From a virus, in the IMG/VR virus record IMGVR_UViG_3300045988_171772, positions 32,001 through 96,000 of that record: a stretch of DNA of 64,000 nucleotides; one strand, written 5' to 3'. The position numbers were made by a program, and so were the translations under genes. Positions 14,373 through 32,181 of this stretch are shown piece after piece. The first letter of the stretch is position 1, and every line of letters starts with the position of its first letter. The notes beneath the pieces are model-generated. The model had not been told where the DNA came from and made no database searches. It was given only the letters and a program-made list of their open reading frames with translations.

Positions 14373-14598
14373 TTCCTCTTTTTGTATATTTACCCCAATT
14401 TCTCTATCGAATTACTCATATTATCATTTTCAAAATGTCAAATATATGCGACATTCTGTAAAACATACCAGACAAAATGTAAAACGAGATATGAGATTTT
14501 CAAAATTCTGGAAAATGGTATTTACTCTAAAAATTGGAGAAGAATTACTACCCACTATAGAAGAGATACTCATATAGAGATTCTTCTATAGTGGGTAG

Positions 14599-14629
14599 TA
14601 ATTTATTAATATAGATATAGAATAGAGGG
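14599..14629 (+). repeat. right copy of perfect 31-nt inverted repeat (IR31)
   Basis: TAATTTATTAATATAGATATAGAATAGAGGG; partner at 12186-12216. Confidence 0.9.
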
Positions 14630-17010: not shown

Positions 17011-17118
17011 AGGAAGAATCCTCCATTTCTATATGAGAGTAAAGATTTTTACCTCTCTGTATAAAAAAGAAAGGTAGGTATCTAGCTTTGATATACTAGA
17101 TACCTACCTTCTTAAGAC

Positions 17119-26597: not shown

Positions 26598-28655
26598 TTA
26601 GATCATGACATCACTGCCATCATCATCCGGAATGATGGAGCTCACCTTGGATACAAAGAGAGGATCCAGATGAGAGGATGCTGTCTTCTCATAGAATTCC
26701 GGAGAGAGCAGCTGCTTCTTCAGATATCCATAAGACAGAGAGATGACCGGAGAGGGATTCTTAAAGAGAGCATCATTCAATCTCAGAATGACGTAATCAT
26801 TCAGATCCCCATTGGGTCCAAAGTCAGGGTCTTCATAGACATTGCTCTTCTTCCGGATGAGAGCACGTACCAGCATCTCCATATGGACGAAGTTGTAGTC
26901 AATGCCTGCTTCCAACTGCTGCTCTGCCATCATCTGCAAGACTTCATCAATGGTATTGCAACCCATACGGTCGTTGGTATTGAGAAGCTTGTTGATATTC
27001 TTAATGGGCCGAGTCAGCTCCTGCGATTTGACCTCTACATTGAAGAGGACCGAAGAGTCATCATCGAAATTCTCCAGAGAGATGGGCTTGCTCCGATCTT
27101 TCTGCTTCAGAATCATAGAAGCCAACTGATCACTCAGATAGAGTTTGGCTCCACCTTCTTCCTTGATGGGATAGAGCACTCGACCAGAGAAGTCGATGAT
27201 ATTGAAAGAGTTGCAATAGTAATCAACCGTATCCTCGGTCTCTTCTTTGAGAATCTCCGGAATCTGGATAAAGAGTTCTTCATCCGATTCTGCATTCGAC
27301 TTCATTGTGATGTCGTTGGAGTAGAGCTCAAACTGCTCATCGAACTCCGGAGACATGACGATGGGATCACTGTGGGTCATCTGCAGATGCTTGGAAGAAA
27401 GGACACGCTGACCCAGAGGTTCAGTCACCTTCATAGCAGCATAGGCACCAGCAGAATAGAGATCCTTATTCAACTCAAAGAGTCCACCATAGCAGTAGGC
27501 ACAGATACCATCCCGAGATGCACAGGTACAAGGAGAACGGAACTGAATGTGATGACCAATCAGATCCTTGTCTCTCTTATAGCTCAGCATTTTCAGATCC
27601 CCGTTCTCGTCATAGTAATACCGACGATCGAGCATCTTGAGGAATTTGTCATCCTTGATGAAGTATGTAACCGGCTTGGATGTATTGCACTTGAGATAAT
27701 CTCTTCTCAATTGCACAGCTGTCGCAGCAGTGGTTGCCTTCTTGGAGAATGCGCCAGGCTCACCCATCTTGGTCTTGGACATAATCAGAGACTTACGACC
27801 AGACATGGCATCCAGATAATACGCAGAGGGACTGCTGATGCCATCCACTAAGATATTCTTGTCGATCAGATGAGGAACGGTGGTACCATTGATGTCAGAC
27901 TTCAAGCCGATCATAATGGCGATCTCTTTAAACTGACCTTTGCTCAGGTTATTGCCAGACTGGAAGAGAGGTTTCAGATCATTGTCTTCATCCTGTACGA
28001 AGAGATCAATCAATCTCGAAGTCCTCTTATCCAATTCTGCTTCAATCTCAATCGGCTGCAGATTGGGATCGAGTTTCTCATGCATGAGATAATCAATCTC
28101 AGGATTTCTCTTGGCAGCCTGAATGATGGAATAAACCGAAACGCCCAAACCAAAGATGGGAGAGAATGCCCGAGAAATGGCAGTCATATGATGGGTGATC
28201 TCATCAATGATGCGACTCTGGGTATGGAAATCCACATCGGTGATATTGGGAAGAATCATATCATTGATATACTCAGTGATCTGATTCATAGAGGCATTCT
28301 TGAAATCAAAGATGAAAGATTCATCCAGGATATCATAGCAGTCACATTCCATGAATGCATACCACAGAATGAGATTGCTCAAGAAATGCCGAATTTGTAA
28401 AGTATGCAGATTCTTTTTCTTATCCTTCTCATCTCCATGATGAATATAGAAGTGAATCGGCATGGTGCGGATCTCTTTGTCTTCGAATTTGTATTTCAGA
28501 ATATCCAAAAGATCCTGGTAGACTTCCTCAAAGGAATCCTTATCCTTCAGGATATCATCGAGGAAGAAATAGACGTTGCTGTAGGTGGACATCAATTCCT
28601 CGAAGGATTTCTTCGGATGCCCATCGTATTCAATCGTAATACCTGCTCCCATCAT
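26598..28655 (-). CDS. multisubunit RNAP beta-prime-like subunit, C-terminal half
   Basis: SGNNLSKGQFKEIAIMIGLK..DGISSPSAYYLDAMSGRKSLIMSKTKMGEPGAFSKK resembles SGARG..Q..GMRGL..EYF.S.HGARKG..DTA; FRSPCTCASRDGICAYCYG resembles RSP.TC....GVC..CYG; GAGGAG RBS. Confidence 0.75.
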   Translation of the reverse strand: MMGAGITIEYDGHPKKSFEELMSTYSNVYFFLDDILKDKDSFEEVYQDLLDILKYKFEDKEIRTMPIHFYIHHGDEKDKKKNLHTLQIRHFLSNLILWYAFMECDCYDILDESFIFDFKNASMNQITEYINDMILPNITDVDFHTQSRIIDEITHHMTAISRAFSPIFGLGVSVYSIIQAAKRNPEIDYLMHEKLDPNLQPIEIEAELDKRTSRLIDLFVQDEDNDLKPLFQSGNNLSKGQFKEIAIMIGLKSDINGTTVPHLIDKNILVDGISSPSAYYLDAMSGRKSLIMSKTKMGEPGAFSKKATTAATAVQLRRDYLKCNTSKPVTYFIKDDKFLKMLDRRYYYDENGDLKMLSYKRDKDLIGHHIQFRSPCTCASRDGICAYCYGGLFELNKDLYSAGAYAAMKVTEPLGQRVLSSKHLQMTHSDPIVMSPEFDEQFELYSNDITMKSNAESDEELFIQIPEILKEETEDTVDYYCNSFNIIDFSGRVLYPIKEEGGAKLYLSDQLASMILKQKDRSKPISLENFDDDSSVLFNVEVKSQELTRPIKNINKLLNTNDRMGCNTIDEVLQMMAEQQLEAGIDYNFVHMEMLVRALIRKKSNVYEDPDFGPNGDLNDYVILRLNDALFKNPSPVISLSYGYLKKQLLSPEFYEKTASSHLDPLFVSKVSSIIPDDDGSDVMI

Positions 28656-28658
28656 TCT

Positions 28659-29171
28659 TTACTCCTCTGCTTCCGTGTTGAGTTCTTCGGAAGGAATCTC
28701 CTCATCTTCCGAAGCTTCTTCTCCATGCACCTTCTTCTCAATCTCTTTGGAGACTTTCTTCATACGATTCTCCATCGCATTCTTCCAATCGGTGGAGGTA
28801 TCCTCCTTTTCTACGATTTTGATCTCGGCATACTTCAATCCATCAAACTGGACCGAAGAGTCATACTCATTGATGAATTTGAGATAGTCCTCCAGACTGT
28901 CAAAGGAGATCTCAACGGGGAATCCTTTGGCTTGACAGGTATCACTGTTATAGTATTCAGCAATCTCCTGGTGAATGTGGTATCCGGCATCACAAGGTTC
29001 CGGATTCGGATTGAAATAGAAGTTATCGAAGAGCTCCATGAAGGGAGTGAATGCACCACTCATACCGACATCGGAGTTGGAAGAGACATTCAGGTCGATC
29101 TTCCCAAGATAGGAGGGATGGATATTACGATATTTCTGGGAAATGATTTTAGAGCTCTGCTCACCTAGAGA
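28659..29171 (-). CDS. RNAP beta-like subunit (N-terminal-half protein), exon 2
   Basis: KYRNIHPSYLGKIDLNVSSNSDVGMSGAF resembles beta [24 protein letters not shown]; the first 38 codons of track ORF 28659..29285 are intronic (they contain the S element, P8 and P9). Confidence 0.65.
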   Translation of the reverse strand, partial: SLGEQSSKIISQKYRNIHPSYLGKIDLNVSSNSDVGMSGAFTPFMELFDNFYFNPNPEPCDAGYHIHQEIAEYYNSDTCQAKGFPVEISFDSLEDYLKFINEYDSSVQFDGLKYAEIKIVEKEDTSTDWKNAMENRMKKVSKEIEKKVHGEEASEDEEIPSEELNTEAEE

Positions 29172-29579
29172 CGACTTATAGGTTTCACTATAAGACTGAC
29201 TATATCTTACCCGAGATAAGGAGTTCTTTCTTATCTCGAATCTCTCCCGCTTTGATTGAATGGAATTACGATAGACTACTGTCATCTATCTACCAACTAA
29301 GAGAAGTCTCTTAGCTCTACTCTACTCAGTTCTACCTGAGGTATTCCTACCTAAGTTACCCTTTCGATAGTCGATGAACCTTATCCTACTTTCATAGGAT
29401 CTTGGCTGCGTGATTGGCCCTACTCTCGACCTTGTTACTATACCAACTGAAATAATGTCCTCTTTAGATCAAGTCCAGTTGCCATATAGGCAGTGATGTC
29501 TATATTTAGTAGTCGGGATTTGACAGGCTATCGTCCCCGCAATTCAAGAGAGTTTATACCGAACTCTTTCAGGTATCAA
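29172..29579 (-). ncRNA. group I self-splicing intron, ORF-less (about 408 nt; 3' boundary +/- a few nt)
   Basis: Minus strand: P AATTGCGGGG 29544-29535, Q AAATCCCGAC 29521-29512, R GGTTCATCGACTA 29380-29368, S AAGATATAGTC 29208-29198. P1 pairs exon CCGAAU with GTTCGG (U.G at the splice site). P3 is 8 bp, P8 9 bp, P9 7 bp. Candidate omega-G at 29172. Confidence 0.7.
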
Positions 29580-30956
29580 ATTCGGTCCTTTAGCAGAGAA
29601 ATAGAGATCTTGGAGCATGGTCATATCATTGACCAACTCATCGGATTTCACAAGGTCTCCAATGTTTCTCATGCCATTGATGATGATGTCCGAACCAAAG
29701 TTGAAGAGTTCCAGGAGGGTATCCATGGTATTCAACTTAGACTTGGACTTCTTCTCGATGAGCTTGTTGATATTCTCGTTGATCTTCTTTCCCAGAGAAG
29801 ACATAACGATGTATTCATTCTTCCGGATTCTCTTATTATCCAGATCCATATTATTCCGATTCTTGAGAGAATCAAAATCCAGGATCATCCATCTGAGAAT
29901 CGAGTAGATATTCTTCTTATAACAGTCAGGAAGACGGAGATTGACCTGGGTAATGGTATCCAAGAGTCTCTCGATCATATGCATGGTGGTTTTGCCCTTC
30001 TCTGCAAAGGTCTCGAGATTCTTAGAGTGAGCAGATCCAATGGAACCTACTCGACAGGTCCAATACATAGTATTCTCTACCGTCTCCATGGTCATAGGAA
30101 AGTCTGCAGACATGCAGGCCGCGATCATAGCGGTGAAGTTTCCTACAAACGGTACATTCTCCATGAGGTAACGATCTACCTGGAGAATGATCTCATTCAC
30201 CCCGAAATACCGATACCGCTCATGATCATACTGATCCGCATGATCATCAAAGAAGAGCTTATCGAAGGGGAGAATCTTGATGACATCCTGGAGGCCAAAG
30301 TAGGCAATGGTATTCTTCAATCCAATCTTCGCAGAGAAGATCATGACAGGATTGATGAATTTTACCTTGGCTGCTTTGGACTTGGATGCAAATCTCGTCT
30401 TCCGATTCAATGCATAGCTATAGGTAGAGAATTGCATGACCTCACCATTCATATCGATGAGAGGACGCTTCTTACTCTTATAGACGATGATCGGCATACG
30501 GGACTTCATCGTGATCTTACCCTTCTGACTATAGGTAGATGCATCCACCAGCTGCCAGAGAGCTTTCCACTTTTTGTTATTGAGGGTATAGAATCCATCA
30601 TACTCAATCGGAATCAGAATCTTCTTGACGATATTCCTCTCATTCTTATTCGTCTTGATGTTGACGTGGAACTGGATCTCACCCACTCGATTGGTAGCCA
30701 GATATTTGAATTTGGGAATGTCATAATTCCCAGACTTTCTTTTGTAGTTGATATTGACAGAGTGCTCATTCACATCCACTTTGTCAGGATCCACTACGAT
30801 GTCATACCCGGTGATGGTGATGTTTTCAATGGCTTCAAATTCTTTCATCGCCATCACAACCAGATCGGGAATGGGGATGTCATTCTCCGATCTCAGAAAA
30901 GGAAGATTGAGCTCCTTTTCCATAGGATTGGGAAATTGATAGATATAATTTAGCAT
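29580..30956 (-). CDS. RNAP beta-like subunit (N-terminal-half protein), exon 1
   Basis: ILIPIEYDGFYTLNNKKW resembles beta IP..T..GTFIING.ERV; DLDNKRIRKNEYI resembles DHLGNRR.R..GE; LYFSAKGPN resembles ISALGPGG; AGGAG RBS; the last 11 codons and the TGA of the track ORF are intronic. Confidence 0.7.
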
Positions 30957-31482: not shown

Positions 31483-32181
31483 TTATCCTTTCTCGGTAAA
31501 GGAATCCTGCTTGATGGTGAGCTTAGCGCATACACCAGGAAGGATTCGGAAGAACGGTTCACCCTTGCGGATGACGACAGAGACTTCGATCACATCACCC
31601 AGATTATACATGATGGTGTGACCCGTCTCTTCTGCCAACTCTGCCAGCGTGTCAAACATCCCTGCCAGGAAATAGCAGCCGACCATCGCCGGAAGATCTC
31701 CATCCATCGTCATGATGGCATGTTTCTCCTGAAGGTCTTTGATGGTCGAGGTGTTGATCCTTCTCATGAGATGCTCTTCATTCGGATCATCCGGATTGTG
31801 CATCCTGAGAATATGGACATCCTGACCATTCTGCTTGGTGACCGTCACGATGAATTTCTTCATGTCATCCAGATGGACTTCCATACAACGGTCAAAGACG
31901 ACATTCAGATTGCCGTCCTTCTCCTCATCGGCATCCTTGGCACTCAGATAGGCAGTCAGGATCGGCCACAGACTAAGCTGGGTAATCCCTTGACGTTTCG
32001 CAATATCACCCAGCACCTGAATCATCGTCGTGATGGTTCTGGCTGCATAGGTATACTGTGTAAAGGGCTTCTGAAGCCAGATATCAGTATCTTCCCCGAG
32101 AACCGGACAGACTTTCTGCTCAATCCTACGGGTGATCTCCTGCTGCTTCGGGTTGGTCGGATTCATTGGGACTTGTTTCAT
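31483..32181 (-). CDS. hypothetical protein (232 aa)
   Basis: Clean ORF; GGAGG-type RBS. Confidence 0.75.
   Translation of the reverse strand: MKQVPMNPTNPKQQEITRRIEQKVCPVLGEDTDIWLQKPFTQYTYAARTITTMIQVLGDIAKRQGITQLSLWPILTAYLSAKDADEEKDGNLNVVFDRCMEVHLDDMKKFIVTVTKQNGQDVHILRMHNPDDPNEEHLMRRINTSTIKDLQEKHAIMTMDGDLPAMVGCYFLAGMFDTLAELAEETGHTIMYNLGDVIEVSVVIRKGEPFFRILPGVCAKLTIKQDSFTEKG

Follow-up and report, generated by a model that had tools for sequence, protein, structure and literature searches.

The element considered here lies in a stretch of 64,000 nt, hereafter the window, which comprises positions 32,001 to 96,000 of the IMG/VR virus record IMGVR_UViG_3300045988_171772. On its minus strand two open reading frames (ORFs), 29544..30956 (470 aa) and 28659..29285 (208 aa), are separated by an ORF-free gap of 258 nt, as an initial annotation made from the sequence alone had described; and the sequence strings quoted in that annotation all occur where it had placed them. 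Its central proposal—that an ORF-less group I intron splits what is a single gene for the N-terminal half of an RNA polymerase (RNAP) beta-like subunit—was borne out by a match to the Rfam group I model, by uninterrupted alleles of the gene, by alignments to the PHROG families and to phage AR9, and by covariation among related introns. On these grounds we consider it very probable that the minus-strand interval 29172-29579 is a splicing-competent group I intron with the junction 29580|29171.

Joining 29580 to 29171 in silico preserved the frame, as had been predicted, and gave a protein of 629 aa that reads ...SAKGPN|SLGEQSSK..., the nucleotide string at the precise junction being ...GGACCGAAU from exon 1 followed by UCUCUAGGU from exon 2. 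Both exons match phrog_2943 ("polymerase") at consecutive positions of that profile (83-414 for exon 1 and 466-519 for exon 2, out of 535). When about 5.8 billion proteins were searched for homologues of the spliced product, we retrieved five uninterrupted proteins of 629 aa (P0001-P0005) that share with it 99% identity, the length and the exact junction, along with dozens of further uninterrupted homologues at identities down to 52%; and ...SAKGPNSLGE(Q/N)SSK... ran across the predicted junction in all 11 of the full-length homologues retrieved. The alleles encoding P0001-P0005 are genomic, not cDNA, in that they lie on multi-gene contigs of 30-270 kb with genes on both strands (L001, L144, L145; loci are cited here by such numbers), and the contigs with empty alleles share with the window a neighbourhood of DNA ligase, two small genes, the beta N-terminal-half and C-terminal-half genes, and a helicase.

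The alignment to AR9-type beta subunits, which the initial annotation had put forward as a check, likewise gave one uninterrupted stretch: residues 100-518 of the spliced protein, spanning the junction, matched chain c of PDB 7S00 (E 5.9e-39), that is, gp105 of phage AR9, which bears the annotation of a beta-subunit N-terminal half from the non-virion RNAP (nvRNAP). Aligned with the junction 459|460 is "SGPQ|SP", shortly ahead of HPSYLGR. Precise excision would therefore leave an intact host gene, since the junction equals that of the 99%-identical uninterrupted alleles and of the AR9 gp105 alignment. Among cultured phages, 21 of 21 tblastn matches (AR9/PBS1, Staphylococcus giant phages, LPJP1 and phiR1-37) crossed residues 459/460 as a single piece, so that no intron occurred at this position in those 21 INPHARED homologues, AR9 gp105 included. 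As judged from these alignments, the host gene is the N-terminal half of an AR9/phiKZ-type nvRNAP beta subunit in a giant gut phage.

The covariance-model search likewise suggested beforehand (Rfam RF00028, Intron_gpI) returned a match above the gathering score (58.2 versus 50 bits; E 3.4e-12) at 29176-29604 of the minus strand, extending over the full length of the model (positions 1-253). A second match at the gathering level was not found in the window, and neither did a permissive scan of it (E <= 1) reveal a further intron; tRNAs were also absent from the 64 kb. Within the intron there is no ORF of at least 29 aa, in agreement with the earlier statement that it holds no homing-endonuclease gene.

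We gathered siblings of this intron from the contigs of truncated homologues, whose proteins of 469-482 aa end in ...GPNLI(P/L)(E/K)RVRYKL, mostly followed by S and a stop, and mark intron-bearing alleles, as well as from a metagenome scan for the site-specific 5' end of the intron. Eight of the 37 loci returned by this 18-mer scan were real (seven of them complete), and the other 29, which had neither the exon context nor the motifs R and S, were discarded; IMG/VR contained no copy of that 5' end. The intron-bearing alleles belong to three host-gene lineages, at 98%, about 85% and 66% protein identity, and carry ten distinct introns of 324-1040 nt, inserted after GGACCGAAU and each ending in G before UCU, with both the U.G pair at the 5' splice site and the terminal G present in all ten.

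These introns differ chiefly in what they carry. The intron of L002 is identical to that of the window (408 nt) and those of L132, L134 and L112 (405, 408 and 414 nt) are likewise ORF-less, as are the compact introns of L006 and of L117/L140 (324 nt). The introns of L126 and L007 (1024 and 1040 nt) contain in the P6 loop an ORF of 206 and 207 aa, respectively, the two being 71% identical over 204 aligned aa; for the L007 ORF the matches were to families of HNH endonucleases (phrog_59 at E 1.9e-25, with Pfam HNH_3 below its cut-off, at 21 versus 24.8 bits). In the intron of L123 (549 nt; L123 4490-5038), of the compact type, all that is left of the HNH ORF is its first 27 codons and its C-terminal part, a remnant that, from its sequence, is an internally deleted endonuclease gene in decay. 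Finally, the 874-nt introns of L003/L004, from the 66% lineage, have a P6-loop ORF of 148-167 aa (L003 7601-8047; L004 5120-5623) that gave no Pfam or PHROG match, and that could represent an unrecognised homing-endonuclease family or some other cargo. With RF00028, sibling introns scored 61.2 and 89.2 bits, the latter value being that of the compact L006 intron. A 9-nt loop, UCUCAUUUG, was seen to cap two hairpins (in the P5 extension and P7.2) of the compact introns L006/L117/L003 and is absent from the window intron. The window, for its part, contains no HNH homologue of the sibling endonucleases, either free-standing or otherwise.

The features of the locus and the secondary structure that we built for the intron are collected in Table 1.

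Table 1. Exons, intron and predicted structural elements of the interrupted beta-subunit gene, in window coordinates; paired strands are separated by a slash.
Feature	Position	Strand	Remarks
Exon 1, nvRNAP beta N-terminal-half gene	29580..30956	-	Codons 1-459, ending ...SAKGPN
Group I intron (predicted)	29172..29579	-	408 nt, ORF-less; starts UUGAUACC, ends ...AAGUCG; boundaries fixed by intron-less alleles
Exon 2	28659..29171	-	SLGEQSSKIISQKYRNIHPSYLGK... through the stop codon
P1	29585-29580 / 29564-29559	-	Exon CCGAAU with internal guide GUUCGG; U29580.G29564 at the 5' splice site; invariant in 11/11 intron-bearing alleles
P10	29567-29565 / 29171-29169	-	Guide AGA with exon-2 UCU; 3 bp
P3	29552-29545 / 29249-29242	-	CUCUCUUG with CGGGAGAG; 2 pairs changed on both sides, 3 one-sided changes, 100% paired
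P4	29541-29536 / 29413-29407	-	UGCGGG with UC-A-CGCA; one bulged A; P element of the initial annotation at 29544-29535
Q element	29416-29405 (approx.)	-	AAUCACGCAGCC; P4 3' strand and start of P6, per the Rfam alignment
P5	29528-29525 / 29420-29417	-	
P5 extension domain	29518-29424	-	About 95 nt, three helices; 14 both-sided pair changes in the P5/P5-extension helices 6-9
P5a	29518-29512 / 29430-29424	-	UCCCGAC with GUCGAGA; 6/7 pairs changed on both sides among relatives
P5b hairpin	29504-29485	-	
P5c	29480-29474 / 29451-29445	-	
P6/P6a hairpin	29405-29379	-	CC..AUCCUA UGAAAG UAGGAU..GG; loop holds the HNH or other ORF in siblings
R element	29380-29368	-	GGUUCAUCGACUA; P7 5' strand GACUA = 29372-29368
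P7	29372-29368 / 29202-29198	-	GACUA with UAGUC; invariant
P7.1 hairpin	29355-29336	-	GGAA (GNRA) loop; 3 pairs changed on both sides
Second peripheral hairpin (P7.2-like)	29314-29297	-	CUAAGAG ACUU CUCUUAG
Third peripheral hairpin	29290-29270	-	GAUAGA UGACAGUAG UCUAUC; 6/6 pairs changed on both sides, 100% paired
P8 hairpin	29238-29212	-	9 bp
S element	29208-29198	-	AAGAUAUAGUC; P7 3' strand UAGUC = 29202-29198
P9 hairpin	29194-29175	-	7 bp
Omega-G	29172	-	Intron 3' end
RNAP beta C-terminal-half gene	26598..28655	-	Next gene downstream, context outside the intron; phrog_3015, E 4.1e-47

Much of this structure had been anticipated: P1, P3, the R and S elements with their pairing in P7, P8, P9, the omega-G and the 3-bp P10 all stand as first drawn, and the P, Q, R and S elements do follow one another in the canonical order. 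The Q element itself, though, had been misplaced. The string then taken for it, AAATCCCGAC (29521-29512), lies in the 5' strand of P5a, and both the Rfam alignment and the covariation identify AAUCACGCAGCC instead. The P/Q pairing formerly proposed, AAUUGCGGGG with AAAUCCCGAC, could form as a 5-bp CGGGG/UCCCG hairpin in the window copy, is impossible in L112, and is thus not conserved; covariation favours the pairing of P4 with CGCA at 29410-29407, together with P5a, over that alternative. The P5 extension had been overlooked altogether. As to the 118-nt insertion between R and the 3' strand of P3, in which two hairpins had been recognized, we found three that covary, namely P7.1 and two more between P7 and P3', and the guess that this insertion corresponds to a peripheral domain of the P7.1/P7.2 type proved right. 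A candidate tertiary pairing of ACUGA (in the GUAGAACUGAGUAGAGUAG junction) with UCAGU (after S) was considered as well and set aside: it is invariant in the family of this site, and in the wider IMG/VR family GUCAG is mostly conserved but ACUGA is not.

Covariation was assessed by aligning with MAFFT the six window-type introns, after excision of the P6-loop ORFs, and by scoring on that alignment the 100 pairs (595 cells) of the structure built for the window intron. Standard pairs made up 96.6% of the cells, as against 35-41% when the 3' partners were slid by 1-3 columns; changes on both sides were found in 37 of the 100 pairs, as against 2-6 upon sliding; and none of 500 shuffles equalled the real alignment in pairing, in covariation score or in the counts of both-sided changes. 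Within these six introns P3, P5a-c, P6, P7.1 and P8 changed on both sides, and for P4 and P5 covariation was confined to the comparison between the two subtypes, window-type and compact. The compensatory differences between the subtypes involve P3, P4 (G-C to U-A), P5 (GCCU/GGGC versus UCUC/GAGA), P6, P7.1, P8 and P9; the core helices pair fully in the compact subtype, and five divergent representatives have them intact. In the structure of minimum free energy predicted for the precursor, P1, P3, P8, P9, P5c, P6a and one peripheral hairpin were present (z = -2.5).

Several observations weigh against a functional intron. The Rfam score exceeds its threshold by only 8 bits, owing to the two large insertions at the periphery; P1 and P7, being invariant in every relative, are helices about which covariation is uninformative; a P2 helix is not evident; and a 5-bp hairpin of AUACC (29576-29572) with GGUAU (29560-29556) is a potential competitor of the two outer P1 pairs. 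In addition, P10 has only 3 bp in the window copy, as compared with 5 bp (AAAGA with UCUUU) in four relatives (L006, L003, L007 and L112); P5a contains a C x A mismatch (29516/29426); and the tip of P5b is inverted with respect to the siblings, with the result that the conserved GNRA loop (GUGA in L126, L134 and L007; GCGA in L112) has become UCAC. This tip, GACATCACTGCC at 29500-29489, is the exact reverse complement of GGCAGTGATGTC in L126, a 12-nt inversion in which the stem is kept.

Two side observations concern these same elements. The hairpin at 29576-29556 is kept in all the siblings, with one wobble-compatible change in L007. At the tip of P5b, L134 is nearly the same as L126, and the inversion is common to the window and L002.

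If the intron were a decaying, splicing-defective copy, within a defective or misassembled genome whose polymerase gene is a pseudogene, then the loss of the endonuclease ORF, the mismatch in P5a, the lost GNRA loop of P5b and the short P10 would all be accommodated; we nevertheless regard that possibility as improbable. The blemishes are peripheral, and the catalytic-core elements, the U.G pair and the omega-G are all intact in the window copy; the close variants L132 and L134 retain pairing through compensatory changes; and both exons are open, with a protein 99% identical to those of intron-less alleles. Moreover, between the window and L002, which comes from an independent sample, the intron showed no difference in 408 nt whereas the exons differed at 53 of 1890 positions (2.8%), at which rate about 11 intron differences would be expected. 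(Ungapped exon counts for L007 and L112, inflated by indels, were not used.) An identical intron in exons that differ to this extent would thus persist in replicating lineages, and is a sign of recent transfer or of very strong constraint, if not of both. The non-virion polymerase, furthermore, is essential in AR9/phiKZ-type phages. Because the core is intact, the polymerase is essential and the identical intron persists in two samples, we infer that the window copy splices.

A second alternative, which we find harder still to credit, is that the gene is truly split, so that polypeptides of 470 aa and of 208 aa (or shorter), translated from unspliced RNA, assemble with each other, the intervening RNA being a non-splicing relic. 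The beta and beta' subunits of giant phages are naturally divided into separate genes (PMC7598289), the two six-frame ORFs are open, and an ATG is present in the downstream ORF. The break, however, would interrupt the beta motif that is best conserved (SAKGPN|SLGEQ...HPSYLG) and that AR9 gp105 and all 21 cultured-phage matches show in one piece. The 11-aa tail of the upstream ORF (LIPERVRYKLS*), as well as ATG 29285 with the first 38 codons of the downstream ORF, is encoded by the intron, in covarying ribozyme helices, and neither tail nor leader occurs in the intron-less homologues, which accords with the previous opinion that the ORF ends are artefacts of six-frame translation. In L007, besides, the junction is preceded, at a distance of one codon, by an in-frame stop, and no exon-2 polypeptide bearing HPSY could therefore start there; and ATG 29285 is not preceded by a ribosome-binding site of the AGGAG type, unlike the starts of the two neighbouring genes. 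Splicing at G29175 instead of G29172, giving ...GPN-S-SLGEQ, would keep the frame at a G that directly follows P9 next to the end of the Rfam alignment (29176), and is the least probable alternative of all: the uninterrupted homologues down to 52% identity invariably read GPNSLGE, ruling out the one additional Ser, P10 would have 2 bp as against 3 bp with G29172, and the sibling spacers after P9 are different, yet each ends in G right before UCU.

With the reading as a group I intron spliced at 29580|29171, the following course of events can be proposed. The beta N-terminal-half gene would be transcribed as a single RNA, in which the intron would fold into P1, P3-P8, P4-P6 with the three-helix P5 extension, P7 with P7.1 and two hairpins, and P9. 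An external guanosine bound in P7 would then attack after U29580, held in P1 as a U.G wobble, whereupon the 3'-OH of exon 1 would attack after omega-G 29172, with P10 aligning exon 2, and ligation of ...SAKGPN to SLGEQSSK... would restore the 629-aa protein. The guanosine-dependent self-splicing and the catalysis that this scheme attributes to the window intron follow the established chemistry of the family; and splicing would have to be efficient, since the non-virion polymerase is essential.

With respect to mobility, the window copy lacks a homing endonuclease, and the site is polymorphic for the presence of the intron, with empty-site alleles occurring in the 99%, 82% and 66% lineages. All 11 intron-bearing alleles read GGACCGAAU|UCU(C/U)U(A/G)GG, thus comprising the exon strands of P1 and P10, whereas the five empty alleles of the 99% and 82% lineages (L001, L144, L145, L146 and L147) have UCC CUC GGC after the site. 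At the DNA level, window-type intron-bearing alleles have TCT CTA GGT (29171-29163) versus TCC CTC GGC in the empty ones, which amounts to three synonymous differences; the empty allele accordingly reads ...CCGAAT|TCCCTCGGC..., and precise loss from an allele with intron-type flanks would read ...CCGAAT|TCTCTAGGT..., such flanks being found in none of the empty alleles that we recovered. Several of the latter, including L010 of the 66% lineage, differ also in the exon strand of P1 (GGACCCAAU, GGCCCGAAU and GGGCCGAAU). These flank differences fit co-conversion of flanks during homing, selection on the P1/P10 pairings, endonuclease-resistant empty alleles, or some combination of the three.

The pattern of presence, absence and decay is, so far as sequences can tell, the one expected of a homing intron, of which the window copy is the ORF-less state. 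The intron would then belong to a mobile family fixed to one site, with the window copy at the ORF-less stage of the homing cycle, no longer able to promote its own spread and harmless because it splices. An ORF-less copy may also still spread by means of sibling endonucleases acting in trans. More tentatively, and with less than even confidence, we suggest that by occupying the homing site an ORF-less intron may protect the polymerase gene from the HNH endonucleases of siblings of the L126 and L007 types during co-infection, such enzymes being weapons between phages of the sort demonstrated with gp210 of PhiPA3; the intron might then be retained for this protection rather than being no more than a spent parasite. 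Three observations are in keeping with protection: two samples whose exons differ by 2.8% have the identical intron; all the empty alleles recovered from the 99% and 82% lineages share one set of three synonymous changes; and nearly identical ribozymes occur both with and without an endonuclease gene.

For annotation purposes, the ORFs 29544..30956 and 28659..29285 should be merged at 29580|29171 to give a single 629-aa protein, the N-terminal half of beta. The databases contain many truncated entries of 470 aa, such as P0010, from a cluster of 115 member sequences, and with hundreds of public gene calls so truncated, the intron is systematically mis-annotated in metagenome gene catalogues. 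Truncations of 469-482 aa with intron-encoded ends were observed in P0009-P0011, P0013-P0017, P0082 and P0105, with cluster member counts of 115, 39, 32, 29 and others. The locus also adds an insertion site to the conserved polymerase positions that mobile introns target in giant phages; this site, in an SALGPGG-like beta motif, presumably adjoins the rifampicin-binding region of the bacterial enzyme, and we take it to correspond to a position between G536 and G537 of E. coli RpoB. The related metagenomic loci, furthermore, represent all stages of a homing cycle at a single site—empty alleles as well as introns with an endonuclease gene, with a decaying one, with no ORF and with a different ORF—so that the set could serve as a natural system for the study of intron-mediated competition among giant gut phages.

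Elsewhere in the window, genes for a tail sheath, an SbcC-like nuclease, a helicase and an NAD-type ligase fit a giant myovirus, for which no near DNA match was present among 50,697 phage records (INPHARED). A 486-aa open frame (29493-30953, plus strand) runs antisense to exon 1, and long antisense ORFs extend across the neighbouring genes too; all of these are most likely by-products of base composition rather than genes. Scans for promoters and terminators around the intron gave results at chance level. Sub-threshold Rfam matches occurred on both strands at 17069-17112 and 14541-14606 (IBV_D-RNA, 32.5 bits versus 35, and miRNA-precursor models), which points to strong hairpins or inverted repeats between genes, serving probably as terminators or regulatory stems.

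With regard to known introns, hairpins between P7 and P3' are a hallmark of subgroup IA (Michel & Westhof 1990). Three covarying hairpins, P7.1 among them, occupy that interval here, an IA-type layout for which the narrower, provisional IA2 label comes from the architecture and from consensus strings. Close counterparts are the classical IA2 phage introns (T4 td, nrdB and sunY; the SPO1/SP82 DNA polymerase introns; Twort orf142 and nrdE) known from Michel & Westhof (1990) and from the laboratories of Shub and Belfort, which have in common with the window intron the strings AAUUGCGGG in J3/4-P4, AAUC(A)CGCAGC in Q, GUUCAnnGACUA in R and AAGAUAUAGUC in S, as well as P7.1/P7.2 hairpins between P7 and P3' and an ORF in a peripheral loop that overlaps the core at its 3' end. 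The HNH endonucleases of the siblings presumably resemble the nicking enzymes encoded in the SPO1 and Bastille introns. The window intron departs from those classical examples in that a P2 is not evident, P5 is extended by three helices, P7.1 is followed by two hairpins rather than one, and an ORF is lacking. Its layout, R-P7.1-GAGUAGAGUA-P7.2-P3'-P8-S, recurs widely in the viral contigs of IMG/VR, where an 18-mer of the R core was found in 95 contig stretches, with the S motif 60-200 nt downstream in 89 of the 96 matches examined; a few of these relatives also have two hairpins after the conserved GAGUAGAGUA. The ribozyme is thus, on sequence grounds, an ordinary member of a widespread lineage of phage introns.

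Among giant gut phages, those named Jug contain some 18 group I introns in each genome, many of them ORF-less and in essential genes, and metatranscriptome reads support the splicing of 37 out of the 76 introns predicted in three genomes (PMC12880540). The Jug genomes measure 360-402 kb and their introns average about 206 nt, as compared with about 235-290 kb for the relatives of the window phage and 408 nt for its intron; and the interrupted genes named for Jug are terL, nrdD and the DNA polymerase gene (PMC12880540), whereas here the nvRNAP beta gene is affected. The AR9-like giant phages (AR9; Staphylococcus MarsHill, Madawaska and Machias) represent the same type of phage, with two multisubunit RNAPs, and AR9 gp105 is the nearest solved homologue. 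In giant phages RNAP subunit genes are often disrupted by introns (bioRxiv 10.1101/2020.12.14.422802), and in AR9 the nvRNAP subunit gene named there as interrupted is the beta' N-terminal one; gp105, in contrast, is uninterrupted at 459/460, and the host of the window intron is an uncultured gut phage without a near DNA match.

A close parallel is found in PhiPA3, where a group I intron that interrupts the beta gene of the virion RNAP (gp211/209) encodes gp210, an HNH homing endonuclease that acts as a weapon against phiKZ (Birkholz et al. 2024, PMC11620839). Both are group I introns in a highly conserved motif of a giant-phage RNAP beta gene, with HNH ORFs present in the siblings of the window intron. 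The PhiPA3 intron, however, interrupts the virion polymerase, after a conserved Asp-Asp (the second Asp aligning with D675 of E. coli), whereas that of the window interrupts the non-virion polymerase at GPN|S in the SALGPGG-like motif; and PhiPA3 is a Pseudomonas chimallivirus whose intron has the endonuclease, while the window phage is of another group and its copy has none. Introns in giant-phage RNAP genes are therefore already documented (AR9, PhiPA3 and MarsHill), and the current understanding of them is unchanged by our results; what is new, as compared with cultured phages, is the insertion site GPN|S in the N-terminal half of the nvRNAP beta subunit, together with the uncultured host clade and a set of alleles that spans the homing cycle.

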